This document shows positions 731-41,918 of a stretch of DNA of 41,918 nt, one piece after another. Location of the stretch: positions 1-41,918 of the forward strand of contig JAOUEU010000002.1 of assembly GCA_029858555.1 (NCBI GenBank), given 5' to 3'. Position 1 is the first letter of the stretch, and each line of letters opens with the position of its first letter. The notes under the pieces were generated by a model. The model searched no databases. It saw only the letters and a list, made by a program, of their open reading frames with translations, and was not told the DNA's origin. This stretch comes from Candidatus Zixiibacteriota bacterium. Its GTDB lineage: Bacteria; Zixibacteria; MSB-5A5; GN15; FEB-12. A program made the translations under genes and the position numbers.

Positions 731-1903
731 TTATTCCCGCTCGAGCTTGTCCTGCAAACGCGACAATTCTCTGACGTAATAGCGGTTTTCCGGACTCTCC
801 TCCCGGGCCATCGTGACCAGCCGGATAGCTTCTTCGATGAAGCCCCGATTTTCACGTAGTTCAGCCAGGGTATGCAGAGCCATCGCCTTGAATCTTCCCG
901 GCGAGGCCGACCCTATGGCCGCTCGAAGGTAATGCTCGCTCTGTTCCAGGTTGACCCGTCTCTGGAAACACCAGCGCCCCACGACGAAGAGTTTCTTGGG
1001 ATCACTCTCCCATGCCGGCCCCTGGCTCTCTTTGACCTGCCGCAGCGCCTCGGCCGTGTCACCGCTGACATAGAGCGTCAGGTCGGCGGTGAAAATATCG
1101 CGCGCCTGTCGATTTTGCTCGTTTTGGCTGGAAACGGTGGCATCGAGGCCGGCTTTCAGGTATCGGGGCAACTCTTCGAGGCGGTTTTTCTTCCTGGCGA
1201 GCGAGCCGAACATCTGTACGGCTTTCACGATATTGTCTTTGTTGCGTCCCGAAAGCACCCTCTCCGCCGCCGGATGAATCTTTTGGAACGGAAGCAGATC
1301 GTCCCAGACGGCGCTGGCGGTGTTGGTGAATATCTGGTAGGCGTAATCCAGCTTGCCGCCCCGGGCGAGATCCTCCGCTTGCCGGTAATACTCGATGGCC
1401 GCAAGGTAATCGTTGATGTCGGCATGGTACTTGGCCAGAACGAGAACATCTCGCAAGACCGGCCTCGCCCGGCAACGCGCGACCCTCTCCTCAATTGTTG
1501 TCAAATCGCGCAGCGCGCCATTCAGGGCGGCGATAAAGCGCTTCGACCCGGTGTAGCCCGTCCACTGGGTAATGACACTGCCGGTGCTGTCGGTCAATAC
1601 GTAAACGGGGAAGGTGTTGCCGATGTGGTAATGCTCCGACAACGCCACACCCTCGCCGTCCGCAATGTTCAGCGGCAGATGCACCACGGCCTGTAGGGCG
1701 CCGATGATGTCATCTTCCGTGGCCGCTTCCCGAGCGGCCTGCTGGCAATACTGTCAGTCGCTGACCACGAACTCCAGCAGAATGGGCTTGCCACGCGTGG
1801 CCGACAGCCCTTTGGCCTCCTCCAGCGTCTCGACGTCCTGCCCCAAAGCCGCACCGGCGACCAGGGTGACAAGAAAGAACAATATCCTCCGGATTGGCTT
1901 CAT
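731..1903 (-). CDS. Exported thioredoxin-fold (Thioredoxin_7-like) protein with TPR-like helical C-terminus; predicted selenoprotein with in-frame UGA (1756-1754) as the first residue of a U-Q-Y-C redox motif
   Basis: Track ORFs 1754..1939 and 731..1687 share a frame (1939-1687 = 252 nt) and are joined by 22 open codons after a single TGA. Joined product: MKPIRRILFFLVTLVAGAALGQD (signal peptide) ...GKPILLEFVVSD-U-QYCQQAAREA...IGNTFPVYVLTD (cis-Pro region), then helical repeats. Start chosen at ATG 1903, which gives the signal peptide; ATG 1939 is also possible. Confidence 0.7.
1721..1739 (-). promoter_or_regulatory. Candidate bacterial SECIS hairpin (GGCCGC-UCGGGAA-GCGGCC) 14 nt 3' of the in-frame UGA
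   Basis: Perfect 6-bp GC stem read directly from the sequence (plus strand ggccgc ttcccga gcggcc). The 7-nt loop contains GGG, placing the loop G residues about 23-25 nt after the UGA. The UGA is followed by C. Confidence 0.5.
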
Positions 1904-2034
1904 CGTGTGTCCGGCTCTTTCGGTTTCTGAGATGCTCATGATATCATATGGTACGGAAATTTGCGGTATGCGTAAAGTTTGAAAACACCTTACCCGGGCG
2001 GTGAATCGCGCGGCGAAGCCGGATATGCCGCCGA

Positions 2035-5163: not shown

Positions 5164-6363
5164 TTAAAAGGACAGACTCATCTTGCCGTATTCGGTGTTG
5201 TCGACAGCGCTGCCGTCCTTGTCCCATTTGGCGTAGTCGTATGAAAAGTCAAGGTGATCCAACACATATGCCACGATCGGATTGGGTGTCTCGATCTGGT
5301 TCAGCGCTCTCAACAGGCCTAATATACCTCTCAGCCGGAACCCGTAGCCGGAGGTGCTGACTGTCTCGTCGTCGAAAGCTCGCTCGTAATCCCCGCTGCG
5401 ATAATAGAAGAAACCGAAAAGGCCCAACTCGATGCCCTTGCTTTTCGTCTTATAGGAACGCCTGACCAGGTCTCGTTCCGTTTCCTCGGAATACCTGATA
5501 GAAACCAGGGAAGCTTCCACCAGATCCAATCCGAAGTACAAAGATGGTCCGTTGCGGCTGATCTTCGGCAGGGCGTCGGTCTGGGCGGCGTCGATATAGG
5601 CGAGATCGTCGCCGGCGTTGGCCCTGACGTGTGCAAAAGAAGGTGTCAGCTCGTACTGCAAATAACGGTCAGTGGAATTATTGAGATAAATTTTATATGG
5701 CAGCAGGTCGCGGATGGGTAACCGGACAACAAATCCCATATCGCGTGCTTTGCCCTCGGCTTCCGCCAGTCCGACTTCGGCGCCGGCCCCGGGGATCAAT
5801 AGTCGGCTTTTGATTTTCTTGTGCGTGTAACCCAGCCCCACCTTGACGTAATATTCAAACCCGATGGCGATTGAGTAGGCTTTGAAGTCGTCGTACGGAT
5901 TCACCGTTCCAATAACCTCCGGTCCAGCCGGTTCGGTAATATTGATCGTGCCCAGGTCAAACTTGGCGTAGGAGTAAGCTGCGCTCAGGGCGGCGTTGAA
6001 GCGGCTGTTCGGCCTGTTGAAAAGAAGGCGATACGATACCCCGGCGCTTATCGCCCAGGTTTTGAAGCGGACGTCGTCCACAAGCTCCGGCAGCCAACGC
6101 GTTTTGTTAGGCAGCGACAGCGCAAAGACCCTGTCGAGGTGGAAAAGGCCCAATCCGGCCGGATTGTACAGAACCGACTGCTCGTCGGCAAGATTAGCTA
6201 CACATCCTCCCATACCGTTAGCCCGTGGCGAGTTGATCGCGGTTAGAAACAGCACGGCGGTGGGCATGATATCCCCCTCTCGCGGTTGTGCCGTTCCTGC
6301 GAACAGGGCTATGCCTGCAATGGCAACGCCCGGCCATATACGAAACTTCGAGACAAGGCGCAT
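5164..6363 (-). CDS. PorV/PorQ-family-like outer-membrane beta-barrel protein
   Basis: Signal peptide, then FLTAINSPRANGMGGCVANLADEQSVLYNPAGLG, which resembles the conserved N-terminal motif of PorV/PorQ-type barrels. Alternating beta-strand pattern and C-terminal aromatic residue (..MSLSF). AGGAGG lies 7 nt upstream of the ATG. Confidence 0.5.
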   Translation of the reverse strand: MRLVSKFRIWPGVAIAGIALFAGTAQPREGDIMPTAVLFLTAINSPRANGMGGCVANLADEQSVLYNPAGLGLFHLDRVFALSLPNKTRWLPELVDDVRFKTWAISAGVSYRLLFNRPNSRFNAALSAAYSYAKFDLGTINITEPAGPEVIGTVNPYDDFKAYSIAIGFEYYVKVGLGYTHKKIKSRLLIPGAGAEVGLAEAEGKARDMGFVVRLPIRDLLPYKIYLNNSTDRYLQYELTPSFAHVRANAGDDLAYIDAAQTDALPKISRNGPSLYFGLDLVEASLVSIRYSEETERDLVRRSYKTKSKGIELGLFGFFYYRSGDYERAFDDETVSTSGYGFRLRGILGLLRALNQIETPNPIVAYVLDHLDFSYDYAKWDKDGSAVDNTEYGKMSLSF

Positions 6364-11465: not shown

Positions 11466-12087
11466 GTTGCTCCCGGAGGATGTCGGCCAGCTTGCGGCCC
11501 AGGGCAGCGGCTTCGGCCAGCGCGGCGGCGTTCTCTCGGACTCCGCCTTTGACTTTATAGTCATCAGAGTGGAAGATGAAGGTGCCTTCGTTGCTCACCT
11601 CGATCCACTTGAAGAACCCGGCCACCACTCGGCGCGCCCCCTCAAACCAGCCCTTTTCGCCGCCCACCAGCACCATTGCCCCCGGCCGCCTCTTTTTGAT
11701 GAGCCTGATAAAACTGTGCCTGGCGCTGTTGCCCGAAAAGTCGGCCGGGCGGAGGCAGTTGCAGCGGTCGATGAAAGCCTTGGCCTGTGAAGAGACCGTG
11801 TCAAAGTACAGCGGTGTGCCGAAAAGCAGGCAGTCGCAATCGGCCACTGTGTCATAGAGTCCGGTCAGGTCATCTTCGTAGAAGCAGAATTCGGGCGTGG
11901 GGGCTTTGCCGCACGACTGGCAGGGGACAAACTTCAATTCGTTCAGGCGCACGAAGGTGCCGTCGACCTGCCAGTCGCGGGGCAGATGGCCGGTAATGGC
12001 GTCCTTGATGTGCGCCAGCAGGAGGTCGGTCGACGACTCTTTCACCGGCGAGCCGGAAACTGCCAGGAGCTTAATCGAAGTCGGCAT
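11458..12087 (-). CDS. Flavodoxin-fold / NADPH-dependent FMN reductase-like flavoprotein
   Basis: IKLLAVSGSPVKESSTDLL...CDCLLFGTPLYFDTVSSQAKAFIDR matches the FMN-reductase/iron-sulfur-flavoprotein family pattern. ATG 12087 overlaps the ABC-F stop by 17 nt. Confidence 0.6.
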   Translation of the reverse strand: MPTSIKLLAVSGSPVKESSTDLLLAHIKDAITGHLPRDWQVDGTFVRLNELKFVPCQSCGKAPTPEFCFYEDDLTGLYDTVADCDCLLFGTPLYFDTVSSQAKAFIDRCNCLRPADFSGNSARHSFIRLIKKRRPGAMVLVGGEKGWFEGARRVVAGFFKWIEVSNEGTFIFHSDDYKVKGGVRENAAALAEAAALGRKLADILREQHG

Positions 12088-13953
12088 CCTCAAGCTCCTC
12101 CAGCCGGGCATAGAGTTCCAGCAGGGTTTCTTCGACCTGTTTTTTCCTTTCCGAAGCGTCGTGCAGCATTTCCCAGTCACTTCTGGGAATACCCTGGTTT
12201 ATTTCCCTTTCGAGACGGGCTGCCTCTCGCTCCTGGTTGACTATCCTGGCTTTGAGCGACTGCAGTTCCTTCTTGTAGCGACTGCGGCGCCGGGACTCCT
12301 CTTTGAACGCGCGATAGGTGTCTTTGGACTTGCTCTCCTTTGGTTTCGCGGTATCGACTGTTTCGGTTGTCTGCTCCCTGAACTCAGCGTAGTTGCCGTC
12401 GTACACCTTGATATGCCCGTCCGCGATGTGTGCGATCTTGTTGACGACCCGATCGAGAAAATAACGGTCGTGACTGACAACCAGGCAGCTTCCGTCATAA
12501 TCATTGAGCGCTTGTTCCAGAGCTTCACGAGAGTCGATGTCAAGATGATTGGTAGGCTCGTCGAAGATGATGAAATTGGCCGGATGGTAAAGAAGACGCG
12601 CCAGCGATAGTTTGGTCTTTTCTCCGCCCGAAAGCGAGCGCACGACTTTGAATCCGTCATCTCCGGTGAATCCGAAACGTCCCAGAAACGAGCGAATCCT
12701 GCCGATTTCAGCGCCCGGGTCCAATTCCCAGAGATTGTCAATGACGGTCAGGTCCGGTTTCAGGTCCGAAAGCTCCTGGTCGAAATACGCCACCTCGACG
12801 TTGTTGCCCAGCTTAATGTCACCCTCGATTGGCGCCAGCTCGCCGATGAGCGAACGCAATAAGGTGGTTTTGCCCGATCCATTGCGCCCGATGATGCCGA
12901 TCTTGTCGCCGCGGTAGAGGTCCAGGCCGATCCCGGCGACCACGGTCGTCGGGCCGTAGCCGACCGAAACGTTTTCCAGGGCCATGACGTGGGCATAGGA
13001 ACGGCCCGATGTATTCACGCGGATACTCGGACCCCTTCCATCCGTCTGCGGCGGCGGCAGGCGTTTGATGCGGCCCAGGTATTTCAGCTTGGACTGAGCC
13101 TGCTTGGTCTTCTGACCGGCCATATGACGCCGCACGAATTCCTCGAGACGTTTGATTTCCTCCTGCTGGTGCTTATATCGATGGGCATGCAGACGTCGCC
13201 GTTCCGCTCGTTCCCTGAGATACCCGTCAAAGCCGCAGGCATACTGGTCGAGCCGGCCCAGGTTTATCTCCCAAACTTTGGAAGTGACCGCGGTCAGGAA
13301 GGCCCTGTCGTGGGATACGGCAATATAGCTCTTGGCGGTGTTGTGCAGGTACTCCTCCAACCAGGTGGTGGATTCGATGTCGAGATTGTTGGTAGGCTCT
13401 CCAGCAACAGCAGGTTGCCTTTGCCCGCCAGGGCCCGGGCCAGAGCGGCCCGATTTTTCTCGCCGCCGGAGAAGTTCCTTACCAGGTCCCCGCGGCGTTC
13501 TTTCTCGAAACCGAGCCCGTCCAGGATCGCCGCAACTTCGTTCTCAAAGCTGAACCCGCCTTCGATTTCAAACTGGTTTTGAAGTTCCCCCAGCCGCTCG
13601 ACCCGTCGGTCGTCCCTGGGGTTTTCGGCCAGTTCGCTTTCCAGCCGGGCAATCTCGCGACGCATCCTCAGAAGGTCTTCGCGAGCCGAGGCCACGAATT
13701 CGAAGAGCGTCAGGTGGAGATACTCTTCTTTTTCCTGCTCGACATAGTCGATAGTGCAGGTTTTTGAGGCGGTGACCACGCCGCTGTCGGTCTCCATGCG
13801 ACCGGCCATGATTTCAAAAAGGGTGGTCTTGCCGCTGCCGTTTTTGCCCACCAGGCCTATTTGCTCGCCGCCCTGCAGAGTGAACGACACGTTGTCGAAG
13901 ATGACCTGGTCATCGAATTTCTTGCAGATGCGTTCTGCCGAAAGCAGGGTCAC
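12071..13953 (-). pseudogene. ABC-F family ATPase (two ABC domains plus C-terminal coiled coil) interrupted by a 1-nt frameshift in the first Walker B motif. This is either a real pseudogene or an assembly error.
   Basis: Track ORFs 13294..14037 and 12071..13360 overlap in different frames. Together they give Walker A GKNGSGKT, signature FSGGEKNR, a broken Walker B (LLLLE/SLPTIS versus expected LLLLDEPTNNLDIESTTWLEEY), then a second set GRNGSGKT / LSGGEKTK / IIFDEPTNHLD. Start is GTG 13953 with GGAGGA 6 nt upstream. Confidence 0.8.
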
Positions 13954-13955
13954 CT

Positions 13956-16025
13956 CTAATCCTCCGATACGACGCCGCGTGAAAGAAGAATCTCTATGAT
14001 GATAAAAACAGCCGCCAGCCACAAGAACAGCTGCCACAGTTCCTTGCCGAAACGCAGCTCCGCGACGGCCGCCGCCAGCTCCCGGTCGGTTTCCAGCAAC
14101 CGGTAGTCGTCGACTCCGATGGCCCGGGCAAATTCATCGGTGTCGGTTTCATCAAGATCGCACTCTTCGGGGTTGATGTTCACAGCGAAGCGGTCAATCT
14201 CGCGACCGAGGTAACTGACGCGGTAAAGACCCGCCTGGCCGGTCGGCCTGGCACGCAATACCAGCGCATTTTCTTCTTCTTCGGGCAGCAGGGAGTACAC
14301 GCTGCTGTCGGGGGCTGTCATCTCGAGCGATGTTTCCACGGCTCCCCTGATGGATAGGCTCCGCGTGATGTTGTCACCCACGAACAGGTGCAGGTCGTAA
14401 CTTGACAAATCGGCCGCCAGGTACTCGGCCACGCGAGAGATAAAGGGAACGAAAAAGGCATGGCCGGTCAGGTCGGAATATTGAGGCGATATCGGGCCGC
14501 TGAAAGTGAGCACCCGGCCGCCCAGGTAACTTGATTCGATCAGCGCCGGTCGATCGCCGGAAAAAAGAAGCAGGGTGCGGGCATTGTCCTCAAGATGCAA
14601 ACGGGGCAGAGTATAAAATTTGATTTCGGGTGGTTGGTTGCGTTCAAAACCGAACACCGAAAAGATGGGGTGGTCGACATCGACCGATTTAAAAGTGTAA
14701 TAACCGGCCCGTGAAAAATCCTTCCTGGCCGGCTCGTCGAAGACGACTCCGGCCAGCGACGACCAGGTGGTGTTGAAGTATTCGATATCCGTCTGACCGT
14801 CATATGTCAGAAACAGCGCCTTGCCCATGCCTGCGAAGGACTTCAGGCGCTTCACATAGCTGTCCGCCAGGACCGGCACGCCATCCAGTATCACGGCATC
14901 GTAATCGAAGAAATTGACTCCGGGCAGATCCTCCGGAGTGGTCTGTTTGACCGACCAGTACTGGTTGCTGGAGGTCGCCGGCACCAGCGCCAGGGAGATA
15001 AAGCGACCGGCCTCGGAGCCGCTTACGATCAGGATATTGAATCTCTCGGGGATCCTGAAGCTGAAGTAGTAGCGGTTGTCGGCCATGAACTTGTCATCGG
15101 AGATTTCGACGTATCCTGAGTGAAAGCCCGTACGCGACACGGCCCGCTTGAAGCGCACGACGGTCTCGCTCGTGGCGCCGACGGCAAAGTCGGTCTGGGC
15201 AATGCGGTTATCGTTCAGAAACAACGAAGCGATGACGTTGCTGTGTTCTTCGTTGGCGTAGTTTTTGACGATGGCGGCCACCTCGAAATCATGTCCGGGA
15301 GTGAGGAGCTGGCCGCCGAAATCAACCGCCGTGATGCCGAGATTGCCATGGGCCTCGAGCGGCAGATCCACCAGATAGATGCGGGCATCGCCGTCTGCCA
15401 GGACCGGCCGGTTGGGCAGGGAATGGCGTTGCCGGTCGGTGATGATGTATATTTCCTTGTTCAGACTGGCGGCCTCGGCCAGCAGGTTTTTTGCGTTGTC
15501 CAGGGCTCCCTGAAGGTCGGCCTCGCCGGATCCGGCCTGCAGACGCTTGAGTTTCTCGACCGCTCTGGCCGGAGATCCAAAAGAAGGCTGCTCGCTGTCC
15601 TCCTGCGTCCGGTCAAGCGCTACCAGGCACACATCGTCCGCTTCGCCGAAAGTTTCCAGAAGCTGCTCCGTCCGTTGCCGCGCCAGCTCTATCAGCTTGC
15701 CGTCCGTGACATAGCGGCTCATCGATGCCGAGTTGTCAAAGAGAACCACCGCCGCCACGGATGCGTGTGAACCGACTCGGCCGCTCTCGGTGGTGGGTCT
15801 GGCAAAGGCCAGCACCACCGTGAAAATGATGAGCATGCGTAAAAGCAGCAGCAGCAGCTGGCGAATCTTCAGCCGCCGCACCTGACGACGCTGCATCGCC
15901 TTGAGGTGCCGCAACGACGAGAACTCGATAACCTTGACACGCCGTCTGAAAAAGAGATGAATCACCAGCGGTATCAGAGCTGCAACAGCTGCAATAAGAA
16001 CGGTGGCGTTGAGAAAACCAAACAT
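13956..16025 (-). CDS. BatA-type N-terminal double-TM domain / von Willebrand factor A domain membrane protein
   Basis: N-terminus MFGFLNATVLIAAVAALIPLVIHLFFRRR is the conserved BatA-like N-terminal domain. MIDAS motif VVLFDNSASMS, C-terminal TM helix, 689 aa. Confidence 0.7.
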   Translation of the reverse strand: MFGFLNATVLIAAVAALIPLVIHLFFRRRVKVIEFSSLRHLKAMQRRQVRRLKIRQLLLLLLRMLIIFTVVLAFARPTTESGRVGSHASVAAVVLFDNSASMSRYVTDGKLIELARQRTEQLLETFGEADDVCLVALDRTQEDSEQPSFGSPARAVEKLKRLQAGSGEADLQGALDNAKNLLAEAASLNKEIYIITDRQRHSLPNRPVLADGDARIYLVDLPLEAHGNLGITAVDFGGQLLTPGHDFEVAAIVKNYANEEHSNVIASLFLNDNRIAQTDFAVGATSETVVRFKRAVSRTGFHSGYVEISDDKFMADNRYYFSFRIPERFNILIVSGSEAGRFISLALVPATSSNQYWSVKQTTPEDLPGVNFFDYDAVILDGVPVLADSYVKRLKSFAGMGKALFLTYDGQTDIEYFNTTWSSLAGVVFDEPARKDFSRAGYYTFKSVDVDHPIFSVFGFERNQPPEIKFYTLPRLHLEDNARTLLLFSGDRPALIESSYLGGRVLTFSGPISPQYSDLTGHAFFVPFISRVAEYLAADLSSYDLHLFVGDNITRSLSIRGAVETSLEMTAPDSSVYSLLPEEEENALVLRARPTGQAGLYRVSYLGREIDRFAVNINPEECDLDETDTDEFARAIGVDDYRLLETDRELAAAVAELRFGKELWQLFLWLAAVFIIIEILLSRGVVSED

Positions 16026-36427: not shown

Positions 36428-36444
36428 GCGCGCAGGCCCGGCGG

Positions 36445-36825
36445 CTAAAACTGTTCCGTCCGCAGCAGCACCAGCGTGCAGGCCCGAACCACTTCGATGC
36501 CGGCTTTCTCCAGCTTGCCGGCCAGGGCTTCGTTTTCGGAACCGGGATTGAAGATGGCACGCCGCGGGCTCAGCTTCAGGATGTTGTCAAACTCACCGTC
36601 GGAAATCCCGGCGTTGACATAAAGCGTCACGGTATCGATCGGCTCGGCAATGGCGTCGAGTGATTTTACGCCGGCGATGCCGTCGACGGTGTGCCCCGCC
36701 GGATGTACCGGTATCGGCCGGTGCCCGTGCTCTTTTAGCATCCTGACGGCCTGGAACGAGTATCGGTCCTCTTTCGTTGAAGCCCCGAGCACGGCTACTG
36801 CCGAATGGGCGGGAGCTCTTTCCAT
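36445..36825 (-). CDS. CoA-binding domain protein (YccU-like)
   Basis: VAVLGASTKEDRYSFQAVRMLKEHGHRPIPVHP...VDGI..VKSLDAI..PIDTVTLYV is the CoA_binding_2 pattern. Confidence 0.7.
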   Translation of the reverse strand: MERAPAHSAVAVLGASTKEDRYSFQAVRMLKEHGHRPIPVHPAGHTVDGIAGVKSLDAIAEPIDTVTLYVNAGISDGEFDNILKLSPRRAIFNPGSENEALAGKLEKAGIEVVRACTLVLLRTEQF

Positions 36826-36965
36826 AATTGCGGTCCTCTTGTCAGATTCGTTGACTTCCGTTCTTCAAGTAATAATAAGCAACAGGTAGGGGCGTCAAAT
36901 GTTTCCTGCAAAAAGACGGCCCGGTGGTCCAGCGGGTCGCCCGGCTCACTGCAATCACGAGATTC

Positions 36966-37406
36966 TTACTTCGGGGCCTTCTCAGGGTCGATATCCGCGA
37001 CGTTCTGCGCGAACGTCCACTGGTGACCTTCCGGACAGCGCAGGGCACACATACGGTCACCCCAGAACTGATCGCGCGGCTCCATCATGACTTCGGCGCC
37101 GGCGGCTTTGGCCTTCTGAAAAAACTCATCGACATTATCGACATACAAGTAAAACGATACCGGACTGCCCGAGAGAGTGACCGGCGATTTGGTCCCCATC
37201 TCGGCCGATTCCGGACCCATCATGAACGTGCAGTCCTTGTGGGTCATCTCGGCATGCGTCAGATTACCATCTTTATCGGTTAGGGTGGTCTGAGTCTTCA
37301 AGCCAAACGCTTTTTCATAGAACTCCAGTGAACCTTTGACGTCTCTGACGATGAGGTAGGGGCTCAGCCAACTCATGCCTTGCGGCTTGGGGTTTCTTTC
37401 AGCCAT
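36966..37406 (-). CDS. VOC (glyoxalase/bleomycin-resistance fold) family protein
   Basis: PYLIVRDVKGSLEFYEKAFG...THAEM....FWGDRMCALRCPEGHQWTF is the typical VOC/PhnB-like pattern. Confidence 0.7.
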   Translation of the reverse strand: MAERNPKPQGMSWLSPYLIVRDVKGSLEFYEKAFGLKTQTTLTDKDGNLTHAEMTHKDCTFMMGPESAEMGTKSPVTLSGSPVSFYLYVDNVDEFFQKAKAAGAEVMMEPRDQFWGDRMCALRCPEGHQWTFAQNVADIDPEKAPK

Positions 37407-37526
37407 AGCGGCCTCCTGTTAATAACAATTACCTGGTTAGCCCTGCTTTATGCAGTGTCTTAGACAACAATCTAACCCCCCTATCCGCGAGGGACAATCA
37501 CATACTGCGGCGACATGATCGCCGTC

Positions 37527-38279
37527 TCATATGATTGGCAGAATGCCGTTAGGATCAAATTCCGCTTTTATTTTGCGCGAGTAAACGGCGTCGGGCGCGC
37601 TGTTGGCCTCATCGAGTCCGGCCAGGAAGTCTTTCCGGTCGTTGGCTTTCTGCCGCATCGATGCGTACTCCCCGGCGGCGCTGATCGGCATAACCCGGAA
37701 GGTGGCGTTGACGATGAATCCCAGAAGCCCCCATGATCCTGAAAAGATCTTGACGATGTCGTATCCGGATACCGATTTGAAGCACGGCGAGCCGGGTTTT
37801 ATTATCTCACCCTCGGGCGTGACCACCTCGGCTTGGACGAAGTACTTCTTCAACGGAAGATCATGACCGTGAAAATCGGACGACAAACCCGCCGCGACAG
37901 CTCCGCCCACCGAACCGACATACGGCAGCGAGGAGTGCGGCAGCCACAGATTATGCGTGGCCAGGTGCTTGTTTATTTCTCTCAGGGGGTAGCCGGAACC
38001 GACCCGGACGTAGAAGTCGACAGGGGAGACCTGCAGCAACTGGTTGAGCCGGTCATTGCGGATTGAGACCATGTCCACGAAGGGTTCTCCCAGCGGGTCG
38101 ATGTTGTTGCCGAAGCCGGTGATGTAGAGCCTCTGCCGGTGACGGTTGGCCAGTTGGAAAAGCTTGGCTGCCTCTTCGGCTGATTCGGGATGAAAGGTCG
38201 CCACGGATTTCTGGTAAGTAAGCCGATCCTCCGGAAACTCGGCCTTGATGATTTCAATGAACGCCTCGAGTCGATTCAT
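37527..38279 (-). CDS. FAD-binding (FAD_binding_4, GlcE-like) oxidoreductase subunit
   Basis: LYITGFGNNIDP, VRVGSGYPLREINKHL, VGSVGGAVAAGLS, GYDIVKIFSGSWGLLGFIV and the C-terminal FDPNGIL. Confidence 0.6.
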   Translation of the reverse strand: MNRLEAFIEIIKAEFPEDRLTYQKSVATFHPESAEEAAKLFQLANRHRQRLYITGFGNNIDPLGEPFVDMVSIRNDRLNQLLQVSPVDFYVRVGSGYPLREINKHLATHNLWLPHSSLPYVGSVGGAVAAGLSSDFHGHDLPLKKYFVQAEVVTPEGEIIKPGSPCFKSVSGYDIVKIFSGSWGLLGFIVNATFRVMPISAAGEYASMRQKANDRKDFLAGLDEANSAPDAVYSRKIKAEFDPNGILPII

Positions 38280-38375: not shown

Positions 38376-40385
38376 ATGTCACTCAAACACATGCTCTTGT
38401 CTCTGTCCCTGGGATTCACGCTGATGCTCCTGGGCGTGTTTTCCTTCTATCCCGCCGAAGCCATGTGGGGATTCAACCATTTGCACTTCCTCTCCGGAAC
38501 TGCGGCCGTCTTCTTCGGTCTCGTCGTGCTGCTCTGGGGCTACTTCACAATTGCTCCTCTTCCCGACAAACGGCTCGAAGCCGTCCTGAGTGGCATTGAT
38601 CGCCGCCTCTGGGGCACGGCAGTCTGGCCACGATTGCTGCTGGTTGCGGTCGCTGCAGCATTGTTTTACATATTCCGGGTCAAAGTGCATCTCCTCGGTG
38701 ACAGCTACACCTGCCTGGCCGTCTTCGGGCAGGGTGAAGCCTACATCCATAAATTTGCCGAACCGGGGTCCATCTATCTTGTCCGGCTCATCCAAAGCGC
38801 GCTGGGCGGCTATACCCGCGATACGACGCTCTGGACCTTCCAGATTCTCTCCATCGCCTCCGGTGCGGTGTTTATCTACAATGCCGTCTCAATAATCGGT
38901 CGGCTCTGCCGCACGGCGCCTCTGCGGCTTCTGGGTCTGTTCAGCCTGCTGCTGTCCGGCGCGGTCCTTTTGTTTTTCGGCTATGTCGAATTCTATCCCA
39001 TCGCGTGGGCAGCCTCCGCGGTGTTCATCAATCTGTCACTGGCTTCCGTCCATAAACCTCGCCTGCTGTGGCTGGCTGCGGCGGCCTTTGTTGTCGCGGG
39101 GCTGATGCATCTTCAGACGATCTACTTCCTGCCGGGACTGGCTTACCTGGTTGTTCACAGTGTCAAGTGGCCGTCTGTCAGAAAGGCTGGCTATGCGCTT
39201 TTCGGCCTGGGGGCCGCCGCCGGCATAGCGCTCTTCGTGTGGCTGTACCGGACCAGGGTGGAATTCGAAATTCTCATTCTGCCGCCGCTGTCGGGGCGGC
39301 CGATAGCCCCCGATTATACCGTTTTTAGTGCCCTTCACCTGCTGGACCTGGCCAACATCACCCTGCTGGTTTTACCGGGTGCACTCTTTCTTTTTCTTCT
39401 GTGGATTTTATGTGGCCGGAAAGATTTCCGCGATCCTATCGCTTTGTTATTGCTTTTTCTTTCGCTCGGCTCGCTGGCGTTTTTGTGCCTCTTCGGCGCG
39501 GCCATAACGATGGGCCGCGATTGGGATGTCATGTCGCTGAGTTTCTTCGCGCCGCTGTTGCTGGCCCTCTACCAGGTGGAGCGGCGGGGGAGAAGCCTGC
39601 CCGTGCGCGTTCTTTTTAACTACATCGTAGTCGTTGGCTTTGCCACCCTGTCCTTTCTGGCCGTGGCCACCGGTACCGAGTCCACCGAAAAACGTTACTA
39701 CACTCTCCTCAACGAGCGCAGCCGCAACGGCTGGATTATCTATGCCAACCATTTCCTCTTGAAACGTGATCTTGACCGCTACAAGGAATTGGTGCAGGAA
39801 TCAATGGACCGCTTCCCCGATTACCAGCAACTGCAAAAAGCCTATCAATATCTGGAAAACGGCGAATATGCCCGGGCTATGGAGCTGGCCCGGCCGCTGG
39901 CCGAGAAAGACCCCTACCAGGCCGATTTCCTCTCTCTGGTCGGTAACCTTTACGGCAAGCTCGGTCAGTATGACAAGGCCGAAGAATATTACCTGAGGGC
40001 GCTCAAGTTCCGGCCATACCTTTCTACTCTGATGAATGAACTGGGTCAGTTGTACATGGACGAGGGGAAGCACCACGAGGCTACTCAAATACTGAGGGAA
40101 GCTCATTCGCTGTCACCGGACAAGACCTTCATTACCGAGAGTCTGGCCCTGTCATTCATATACCAACAGCAGTTCGACTCGGCGCTGGCTTACGCCGATA
40201 CGTTGTTCGCCGCCGACCGACATTCACCGGGGGCGCACCTGATAAATGTTACAGTGGCCCTGAATCTGGACGACCGGCAGACGGCCAGGCAACATCTGAA
40301 AGAGTATATGAAATACGGCCGGGACCGCTCCGACTACGAGCGCATCAAAGAATTTTACGGCTACCTGCTGGAAGGTAACGACTAA
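38376..40385 (+). CDS. Polytopic membrane protein (about 10 or more TM helices) with C-terminal TPR domain
   Basis: The first ~430 aa are dominated by hydrophobic helices. The last ~200 aa carry TPR units (YARAMELARPLAEKDP, YDKAEEYYLRALKFRP, HHEATQILREAHSLSP). The architecture recalls PMT/ArnT-like or DUF2723-type glycosyltransferases, but I cannot confirm that assignment. Confidence 0.6.
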   Translation: MSLKHMLLSLSLGFTLMLLGVFSFYPAEAMWGFNHLHFLSGTAAVFFGLVVLLWGYFTIAPLPDKRLEAVLSGIDRRLWGTAVWPRLLLVAVAAALFYIFRVKVHLLGDSYTCLAVFGQGEAYIHKFAEPGSIYLVRLIQSALGGYTRDTTLWTFQILSIASGAVFIYNAVSIIGRLCRTAPLRLLGLFSLLLSGAVLLFFGYVEFYPIAWAASAVFINLSLASVHKPRLLWLAAAAFVVAGLMHLQTIYFLPGLAYLVVHSVKWPSVRKAGYALFGLGAAAGIALFVWLYRTRVEFEILILPPLSGRPIAPDYTVFSALHLLDLANITLLVLPGALFLFLLWILCGRKDFRDPIALLLLFLSLGSLAFLCLFGAAITMGRDWDVMSLSFFAPLLLALYQVERRGRSLPVRVLFNYIVVVGFATLSFLAVATGTESTEKRYYTLLNERSRNGWIIYANHFLLKRDLDRYKELVQESMDRFPDYQQLQKAYQYLENGEYARAMELARPLAEKDPYQADFLSLVGNLYGKLGQYDKAEEYYLRALKFRPYLSTLMNELGQLYMDEGKHHEATQILREAHSLSPDKTFITESLALSFIYQQQFDSALAYADTLFAADRHSPGAHLINVTVALNLDDRQTARQHLKEYMKYGRDRSDYERIKEFYGYLLEGND

Positions 40386-40404: not shown

Positions 40405-41918
40405 CTACGGGCAATCTTGCGGCGGCGGACCCGGAGGTATGCCGAACAGGTAGGCGACCAGGTACGTAATATCGGCGATGTTCGACTTTTCATCCAGATC
40501 GGAGTTGGCGTTTCCCTCGGCCGGACAGCCCGGGGGAGGGCCGGTCGGTATGCCGAATAAATACTTCACGAGATACGTAATGTCTGTAATGTTGCACTTG
40601 TCCTCGAGATCACTGTTGGCGTTGCCCCGTATGCCGGTGCAACAACAGGCATCCCCGATGCCGTCACCGTTGAAGTCCAGCTGTAACGGGTTGTAATCGA
40701 GGGGGCAATTGTCACAAAGGTTCCCTTTACCGTCCAGATCGCTGTCGCTCTGGTCGGGATTTGGCGTCGTCAGGCAGTTGTCCACCATATCCGGCACGCC
40801 GTCGTCATCAAAATCGGGTGGGGCTCCAACGGTAAAGCAATAGGGTCCTTCCCACACGGGGCTGACGGCGCCGGCAGTGTGCGTCATCCATTGCCAGGGC
40901 AAATAAAACTGCTCGGCCTTGTCCAGACAGATGGTCTTGCCGCTCTGCCCGGCATCAAACTGGGTCGTAATAGTATAAACATTCTCTGAGAAACCGGGCT
41001 CGAGTCCATCCTCCTGTTCGCCCAGCAGGGTCGCCACACCGCCGAAATCAATCGTATCGGCCCCGCTGCCGGTAATATGCAAATCATTGGCGAACAGGTT
41101 CGCGTCAAAGTAAGGGTAGACATTCCAGCCGGGGTAATAGACTTCCCAGCTTGATGTTCCCGAGTTATACCAGGGAAGATGCTCCAGTGGCTCCCAGGTG
41201 GCGCCGTCAGGGGAGTGTACACAAAAGGCGTTACGCACTGACCAGATATACCGGTTCTTTGCCGATGGATTGGTGAACTTGAGATAAAAAGTCACAGGCA
41301 CACCCGGCTTCAATTCGTCGGAGGTTCCCTCGACCAGTCCATCCACCGAGTCCAGTGCTATGATGAAATCCAGCGTGTCGGTATTGTCCTCGATGGTGAA
41401 GCAGTGTGGGCCGTCCCAGGTCGGTGTGATCCACTGCTGATCGAAGGTTTCCCACTTCCAGGAGGCATCCGGCGGACACGAGGCAGAGTCCAGGCACAGT
41501 GTTTTCCCGGCCTGGTCGGCATTTACCTGGGTTGAGATAGTATAGACAACGTCGGAGAATCCGGCAGGCAATCCATCGTCGCCTATAAAAACGGCCATGC
41601 ATAAGAACTGGAGAGAATCGGCGCCACTTCCGGTCACGCCGGATTCATCAACAATGATGATGCCAAAATAGTCGCTCCACTCCGAGTGATAGGATATCCA
41701 GTGATTGAGTGAAAGCTCGTACGGCACGTGTGTGAGCGGCTGCCACTGGGCACCGTCCGGGGAGTATACCCTGAAGCCGTTAAGGACGGATCGCAACGAA
41801 TCGCAGGACGGGGCGCAAGGATTCGAGAACTTGATGTAAAACGTGACCGGCGCGTCAATCGCTATCTCGCCCTTCCAGTTCAAACCGGAAACGCTGTCCA
41901 GGGAAACCGCACGGGTCT
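40405..41918 (-). CDS. Secreted or surface protein, C-terminal part only: at least 2 tandem ~165-aa domains of unknown function, thrombospondin type-3 repeats and two dockerin-like repeats
   Basis: The frame stays open upstream of the track TTG start to the window edge (..AVSLDSVSGLNWKGE parallels ..IIALDSVDGLVEGTS before repeat 2). TSP3 region: DDDGVPDMVDNCLTTPNPDQSDSDLDGKGNLCDNCPLDYNPLQLDFNGDGIGDAC. Dockerin-like repeats: GNANSDLEDKCNITDITYLVKYLFGIP and GNANSDLDEKSNIADITYLVAYLFGIP. Confidence 0.7.
   Translation of the reverse strand, partial: TRAVSLDSVSGLNWKGEIAIDAPVTFYIKFSNPCAPSCDSLRSVLNGFRVYSPDGAQWQPLTHVPYELSLNHWISYHSEWSDYFGIIIVDESGVTGSGADSLQFLCMAVFIGDDGLPAGFSDVVYTISTQVNADQAGKTLCLDSASCPPDASWKWETFDQQWITPTWDGPHCFTIEDNTDTLDFIIALDSVDGLVEGTSDELKPGVPVTFYLKFTNPSAKNRYIWSVRNAFCVHSPDGATWEPLEHLPWYNSGTSSWEVYYPGWNVYPYFDANLFANDLHITGSGADTIDFGGVATLLGEQEDGLEPGFSENVYTITTQFDAGQSGKTICLDKAEQFYLPWQWMTHTAGAVSPVWEGPYCFTVGAPPDFDDDGVPDMVDNCLTTPNPDQSDSDLDGKGNLCDNCPLDYNPLQLDFNGDGIGDACCCTGIRGNANSDLEDKCNITDITYLVKYLFGIPTGPPPGCPAEGNANSDLDEKSNIADITYLVAYLFGIPPGPPPQDCP

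Follow-up and report, generated by a model that had tools for sequence, protein, structure and literature searches.

RESULTS

One gene with an in-frame UGA codon

Do two consecutive open reading frames (ORFs) on the minus strand of a Zixibacteria contig, kept apart by a single TGA, encode two proteins or one protein that contains selenocysteine (Sec)? The question was raised by an original prediction, made from the window (the whole stretch of 41,918 nucleotides analysed here), which joined both ORFs into a single UGA-recoded gene for an exported protein with a thioredoxin fold and tetratricopeptide repeats (TPR). On comparative sequence grounds, it is very probable that the TGA is a genuine Sec codon served by a functional selenocysteine insertion sequence (SECIS) in an exported thioredoxin-TPR gene.

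The ORFs at 1754..1939 and 731..1687 lie in the same frame, covering 1209 nt or 403 codons, and the sole stop between them is the TGA at 1756-1754, followed by 22 codons without a stop up to GTG 1687, the start chosen by the ORF finder. The frame check was in agreement with what had been predicted (a shared frame, one TGA and 22 stop-free codons), and the read-through peptide across the TGA was recovered as ...GKPILLEFVVSD-U-QYCQQAAREAAT..., as had been stated, or, to an alternative extent around the Sec site, as ...GKPILLEFVVSD-U-QYCQQAAREAATEDD.... Conservation at the protein level extends to both sides of the TGA. The start codon is likely the ATG at 1903-1901 (MKPIRR...) and not ATG 1939; the MKPIRR start is kept in the homologue L001, which is 85% identical. 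The minus-strand region 1903..731 is one gene of 390 codons plus a TAA stop (733-731), with Sec at codon 50, as delimited by the frame with its single TGA, by the start of L001 and by end-to-end alignment with Cys homologues of ~390 amino acids. The Sec codon itself (1754..1756, minus strand), identified by the Cys column at position 50 and by the TGA in 17 loci described below, occupies the first position of a U-Q-Y-C redox motif (1756-1745).

The TGA stands at the column of an invariant cysteine

When the part of the protein after the TGA was searched exhaustively with HMMER against 1.84 billion representative sequences, 359 family members were obtained. Those of ~390 residues all start with a signal peptide or a lipobox and carry CxxC (mostly C-E-Y-C, and W-C-G-P-C in distant ones) where the window has U-Q-Y-C. 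C50, C53 and P99 are invariant in a 40-sequence alignment. Family members bear names such as [quoted passage not shown] and similar, and a scan of genome contigs with Cys-containing patterns gave one match, a Cys form (L004) in a Zixibacteria metagenome-assembled genome. For its part, the RF1 protein encoded in the window is 70-73% identical to RF1 of Candidatus Zixiibacteriota. Family and window alike come from Zixibacteria.

To the question of whether homologues have Cys or an in-frame TGA at this column, which the original prediction had left to be checked, the answer was both: the first Cys of CxxC was found there in all 39 full-length homologues examined, and a TGA at 17 distinct loci. 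These 17 Sec-form loci, drawn from ENA, JGI, Logan and NCBI assemblies, comprise eight database proteins called from after the active site and nine of the ten loci obtained in a metagenome scan with patterns from the region that follows the active site; the remaining locus, L015, encodes a distant Cys form with the motif WCGPC. Three of the loci came from a word-indexed search, in which the non-self relatives were all called from after the active site and their contigs all carried TGA at the same column. DNA was also fetched for five further N-terminally short proteins (P0005, P0008, P0010, P0062 and P0124), with the same result in every case. No locus had TAA or TAG at the Sec column (TGA in 17/17), and the proteins range from 26% to 85% identity to that of the window. 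The two Sec forms at only 26-28% identity have the motifs T-U-G-S-C and W-U-S-S-C. Zixibacteria metagenome-assembled genomes with a Sec form include GCA_023138975.1 (contig JAGLON010000023.1), JGI Ga0366840_1000003 and Ga0224509_10000001, while CAWDFP01 is an example with Cys forms only.

In the databases, the Sec forms are filed as truncated "hypothetical" or "TPR repeat" proteins that have lost the signal peptide and the active site, as had been anticipated of standard annotation; GenBank MCK5126625.1, for instance, is a Sec form recorded as a 330-amino-acid "hypothetical protein". Of the 150 best cluster representatives among the 359 members, ~60-65 have their N-terminus immediately past the active site, so that much of the family may consist of Sec forms.

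A claim on the termination context held in part. The UGA in the window is indeed followed by C, a weak context, but this is not a conserved feature, given that 12 of the 17 loci have G at that position and one has A.

On one metagenomic contig (L016, 1001-3173), two Cys-form paralogues of 390 and 392 amino acids lie in tandem, so that the thioredoxin-TPR family can be duplicated within one genome.

A hairpin with SECIS geometry is conserved downstream of the UGA

The SECIS hairpin, assigned from its fold energy, its covariation and the criteria for bacterial SECIS elements (bSECIS), lies at 1721..1739 on the minus strand. Its sequence, GGCCGCU-CGGGA-AGCGGCC, forms a stem of 7 bp (1739-1733 with 1727-1721) around a loop of 5 nt, CGGGA (1732-1728); it begins 14 nt past the TGA, with the loop 21 nt past the UGA, and folds alone at -13.9 kcal/mol. 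The perfect hairpin at 1739-1721, 14 nt after the UGA, had been correctly described, whereas the loop had been given as UCGGGAA; its outer U and A form an extra pair, which yields the longer stem and the shorter loop.

The hairpin is above chance, because it is conserved in the 17 loci. It stands in the same register in all of them, columns 18-24 pairing with columns 30-36 around a loop CG[U/G]G[A/C], and 89.9% of the alignment cells are paired; shuffling of the columns gave 79.5%, and none of 500 shuffles attained the observed value. The covariation score was 0.346 versus 0.193 in the shuffles, and again none of 500 was as high. Changes on both sides were observed in five of the seven pairs (GC/UA at 19-35, CG/UA at 20-34 and 21-33, and UA/CG at 24-30), while control structures slid by one to three columns gave pairing of 24-52%. 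Compensatory change can alter the peptide, as in L002 (one Ala replaced by Ser and another by Glu), or be synonymous, as in L003 (GCU in place of GCC, and GCA in place of GCG).

The coding sequence bears the same imprint. Among 15 Sec forms, synonymous codon identity was 1.0 at positions +6, +7 and +10 and 0.75 at +8 and +9, and ranged from 0.15 to 0.65 at most other codons, including those of the invariant G+35 (0.22) and L+38 (0.15). Ala+7 and Arg+8, whose codons supply the last bases of the 5' arm and the CG that opens the loop, are found in every one of the 17 Sec forms, as against 41% and 33%, respectively, of 39 Cys forms. At seven Cys-form sites, 2 to 4 of 6 register pairs could be formed, one of these sites coding for the same LAAREAE peptide with different codons. 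Hence the query of the original prediction, whether TGA-carrying orthologues keep the hairpin, can be answered: it is kept in 17 of 17, with compensatory changes, and is not kept in the Cys forms. The hairpin is under selection at the RNA level and has the geometry of a SECIS.

The published bSECIS consensus calls for a loop of 3-9 nt, a stem of 4-16 bp, a distance of 16-37 nt from the UGA, a minimum free energy of -7.5 kcal/mol or lower and G within the first two loop positions (PMC13188914, Fig. 2). With its loop of 5 nt, its stem of 7 bp, its spacing of 21 nt and its -13.9 kcal/mol, the hairpin of the window agrees with this consensus, and the spacing is suited to a bacterial SECIS, as had been proposed. 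The loop CGGGA also conforms, having G at position 2, after which G or U is required.

Export signal, thioredoxin fold and TPR-like domain

The product is supported as an exported protein of 390 residues, with a signal peptide, a domain resembling DsbD-gamma and Thioredoxin_7 that contains U50-Q-Y-C53, and a C-terminal TPR-like superhelix. The predicted signal peptide, MKPIRRILFFLVTLVAGAALG (1841..1903, minus strand), was read from the sequence by eye; it has a basic n-region, a hydrophobic core of 14 residues and A-L-G, with approximate cleavage before QD. An N-terminal hydrophobic segment is present in all homologues. In some members (L021, at ~870-990, P0019 and P0053), a lipobox (LLAGC, IMAGCS or LIAGCA) replaces the plain signal peptide. 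Such members are probably lipoproteins, and the presence of the lipobox supports a location in the envelope.

The thioredoxin-fold domain comprises residues ~26-127 (1523..1828, minus strand), as delimited by Pfam, by a profile search of the PDB and by the structure model. With U replaced by C, the joined protein matched Thioredoxin_7 (PF13899; E 1.4e-7, 31.9 bits) above the cutoff of 27 and Thioredoxin_2 (PF13098; E 8e-6, 26.6 bits) just below its cutoff, also 27, and TPR families matched weakly. In the PDB profile search, 2kuc (1e-14) and the DsbD C-terminal domain (4e-12) came closest to the thioredoxin domain, and the C-terminal part matched TPR proteins. The codon of the cis-Pro of the thioredoxin fold, P99, lies at 1607..1609 (minus strand) and corresponds to an invariant column in alignments A1 and A6. 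The C-terminal domain, all-helical and TPR-like, covers residues ~135-390 (734..1501, minus strand), as indicated by the weak Pfam TPR matches, the AlphaFold helices and Foldseek.

The structure model was that of P0007, a Cys homologue 43% identical to the window protein, predicted by AlphaFold2 with a predicted local distance difference test (pLDDT) score of 95.1 and a predicted template modelling (pTM) score of 0.88. It consists of an N-terminal signal helix, a thioredoxin fold and thirteen helices over residues 138 to 390; in the fold, a strand at 41-46 precedes a helix at 51-62, and CxxC (50-53) stands at the helix start. In a Foldseek search, consensus-TPR and OGT superhelices (E 4e-6) were matched by the helical part, and a Thermus thioredoxin by the thioredoxin part, with a template modelling (TM) score of 0.70 on the target. 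The original prediction had recognized a thioredoxin fold with CxxC opening helix 1 and a cis-Pro, a view with which Pfam, the PDB profile search and the P0007 model agree, and the exported thioredoxin-TPR architecture that it had proposed is likewise borne out by the predicted signal peptide and ~13 predicted TPR-like helices.

Alternative explanations for the in-frame TGA

The TGA could be a nonsense mutation in a pseudogene, or a sequencing or assembly error in which TGC, TGT or TGG was miscalled. The window is a single contig, and an ABC-F gene elsewhere in it looks frameshifted, but an accident of this sort is extremely improbable in the face of a TGA at the same column in 17 independent assemblies that are 26-85% identical, with intact flanking frames and a hairpin conserved together with it. 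It is very improbable that the region holds two genes, of which the first would be a short ORF terminated by the TGA and the second would encode a 318-amino-acid protein from GTG 1687. Prodigal-type calls do give proteins of ~305-330 amino acids in all databases; such a division, however, would fall between strand 1 and helix 1 of the thioredoxin fold, and the larger product would lack the signal peptide, strand 1 and the CxxC active site. Moreover, the 22 codons from the TGA to the GTG show conservation at the protein level and can be aligned with the Cys forms.

The UGA might also be translated in some other manner, through a global reassignment (to Trp or Gly), through near-cognate read-through stimulated by the hairpin, or as Cys via tRNA(Sec). 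In other systems, a hairpin located downstream can promote read-through, and the Sec machinery was not seen in the window or in the fetched loci, both of which would favour a decoding of this kind. We nevertheless consider it quite unlikely. TGA terminates 10 of the 28 well-supported genes in the window, including nth, prmC, prfA, prs, the GT4 gene, the FAD protein gene and the cytidylate-kinase-like gene, which excludes a reassignment, in accordance with the original prediction (it had named prmC, nth, the flavoprotein, GT4 and cytidylate-kinase-like genes as true TGA stops). Furthermore, the column is that of the invariant catalytic Cys, where Trp or Gly would inactivate the enzyme, and the spacing of the hairpin and the G of its loop match the SelB-type consensus.

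Several results weigh against the insertion of Sec at this codon. Neither the 41.9-kb window nor any of the fetched loci contained selA, selB, selD or tRNA-Sec; a dedicated tRNA-Sec search yielded none in the window or in 10 loci, and a scan of the whole window at the Rfam gathering thresholds detected tRNA-Gln only. No literature was found on a Sec trait in Zixibacteria. Gene neighbourhoods around L019, L020 and the window showed no conservation and gave no functional clue, and homology is the sole guide to what the mature protein does (as a reductase, isomerase or oxidase) and to the role of its TPR part. As regards the hairpin, the fold of a 76-nt region was unremarkable in isolation when compared with shuffles (z = -1.17), and the comparative evidence was relied on because fold energy alone was not significant. 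Four homologues have hairpins weaker than -7.5 kcal/mol (L013, -3.9; L009, -6.7; L006 and L019, -7.0 each), and an E-value scan of 1600-1850 against Rfam rendered chance matches only, with no SECIS family among them. Bacterial SECIS elements are poorly modelled in Rfam.

If the UGA is a Sec codon, the established bacterial Sec pathway suggests how the gene would be expressed. The UGA at codon 50 would be decoded as Sec, the 7-bp hairpin acting as the SECIS that recruits SelB-GTP-Sec-tRNA(Sec) to the ribosome paused at the UGA, where Sec delivered by SelB would compete with RF2. The protein would then be exported via its signal peptide to the cell envelope. There, Sec50 would be the nucleophile that attacks substrate disulfides, forming a selenenylsulfide to be resolved by Cys53, and the TPR superhelix may hold a client or partner protein.

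Comparison with known systems

Thioredoxin-like UxxC selenoproteins, which the original prediction had cited as known, are the commonest predicted bacterial class of selenoproteins (PMC13188914, Table 1); the members listed there are thioredoxin (PF00085), "thiol:disulfide interchange protein" (PF13098), and DsbA-like, DsbG-like and thiol-disulfide isomerase-like proteins. The window protein resembles this class in having Sec at the N-terminal Cys of CxxC, Cys homologues and a canonical bSECIS directly after the UGA. It differs in that its best Pfam match is Thioredoxin_7 (PF13899) and in its C-terminal TPR-like domain of ~260 residues, the term "TPR" appearing nowhere in the same table. The closest solved thioredoxin domains, namely the gamma domain of DsbD and the Bacteroides "putative disulphide isomerase" 2kuc, are likewise extracytoplasmic and contain CxxC; they use Cys, however, and DsbD-gamma is attached to an electron transporter in the membrane instead of being fused to TPR.

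Regarding domain order, the nearest counterpart is the chaperedoxin CnoX/YbbN (3qou of Escherichia coli and 3qdn of Salmonella), in which a thioredoxin domain is also followed by TPR and with which Foldseek aligned both domains (E 3e-4). CnoX is cytoplasmic and is not known to contain Sec. Global superposition on 3qou and 3qdn was poor (TM 0.20-0.27; root mean square deviation, ~20 Å), YbbN was absent from the top 60 sequence-profile matches in the PDB, and proteins of the family of the window, unlike CnoX/YbbN, start with a signal peptide or lipobox and have a TPR array that is longer, with ~13 helices. Membership of CnoX/YbbN was rejected: the domain order is shared, but overall homology and the cytoplasmic location are not, and the relation is one of analogy only.

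The Trx7/PDZ domain-containing selenoprotein (NF041199) similarly combines a domain of the Thioredoxin_7 type with a protein-binding module and a predicted Sec (PMC13188914, Table 1), although it differs in its motif (CxxU instead of UxxC) and in its partner domain (PDZ instead of TPR). None of the families in NCBIfam release 20, which includes selenoprotein models, matched the joined protein (U replaced by C) at E ≤ 0.001. No prokaryotic selenoprotein containing TPR was found in the full-text literature, a search whose coverage stopped short of BSepDB and the supplements of large metagenomic surveys. The gene is one more UxxC thioredoxin-fold selenoprotein with a textbook bSECIS, distinct in its domain architecture and in the phylum of its host.

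Other genes in the window

The search for other in-frame TGA candidates gave nothing convincing in the window, L004, L005, L019 or L020. The FAD_binding_4 flavoprotein (36430-38279, minus strand) was tried as a second selenoprotein and rejected, as its 250-amino-acid ORF (37527..38279) ends at a genuine TGA. Downstream of this TGA, in the same frame, lies a separate glyoxalase/VOC gene. A 492-amino-acid protein (40405-41883, minus strand) showed a partial, below-cutoff match to the NCBIfam "Omp28-related selenoprotein" model NF045500 (E 1.2e-11; model positions 272-310); the match falls over thrombospondin type 3 repeats and probably reflects a shared repeat and not a Sec site.

The ABC-F ATPase gene (12071-14037, minus strand) is split between an ORF with the N-terminal ABC domain (13294..14037) and another with the rest (12071..13360), which overlap by 67 nt in different frames, an apparent frameshift that may be an assembly error or real. 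At 5164-6363 (minus strand), an outer membrane protein of the PorV/PorQ family was detected (NCBIfam, 4.7e-11, below cutoff), which fits an origin in the Fibrobacteres-Chlorobi-Bacteroidetes (FCB) group and Zixibacteria. The right-hand end of the window is present with the same gene order in a second public assembly, L023 (ENA ERZ27296335, k141_413328), where a 669-amino-acid protein is identical to that of the window (38376..40385). L023 reaches ~1.5 kb past the window, and its last gene there encodes 526 amino acids, as opposed to the 492 of the ORF in the window.

DISCUSSION

The understanding of Sec decoding itself is unchanged by this gene, which will not surprise a specialist in selenoproteins. 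What it adds to the bacterial selenoproteome is the thioredoxin plus TPR architecture, and for the Sec forms of the family it corrects a systematic error of annotation. The covarying SECIS (GCCGCU-CGUGA-AGCGGC, 21 nt after the UGA) can serve as a training example for SECIS models, and the same element, with its fixed register, offers a handle for finding further selenoproteins in the phylum Zixibacteria.

A broader reading is that current catalogues lack an entire family, an exported thioredoxin-TPR protein of Zixibacteria and relatives that would combine redox activity with client binding and that would use Sec, with a SECIS in fixed register, in a large share of lineages. The case for and against this broader reading is evenly balanced. 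If it is true, the occurrence of the Sec form down to 26% identity would speak for an old and selectively maintained use of selenium in the redox chemistry of the envelope, and the Sec-decoding trait would extend across a candidate phylum for which none had been described before. The finding implies that the Zixibacteria, uncultured bacteria of sediment and groundwater, decode Sec and spend selenium on a thiol-disulfide enzyme of the cell envelope.

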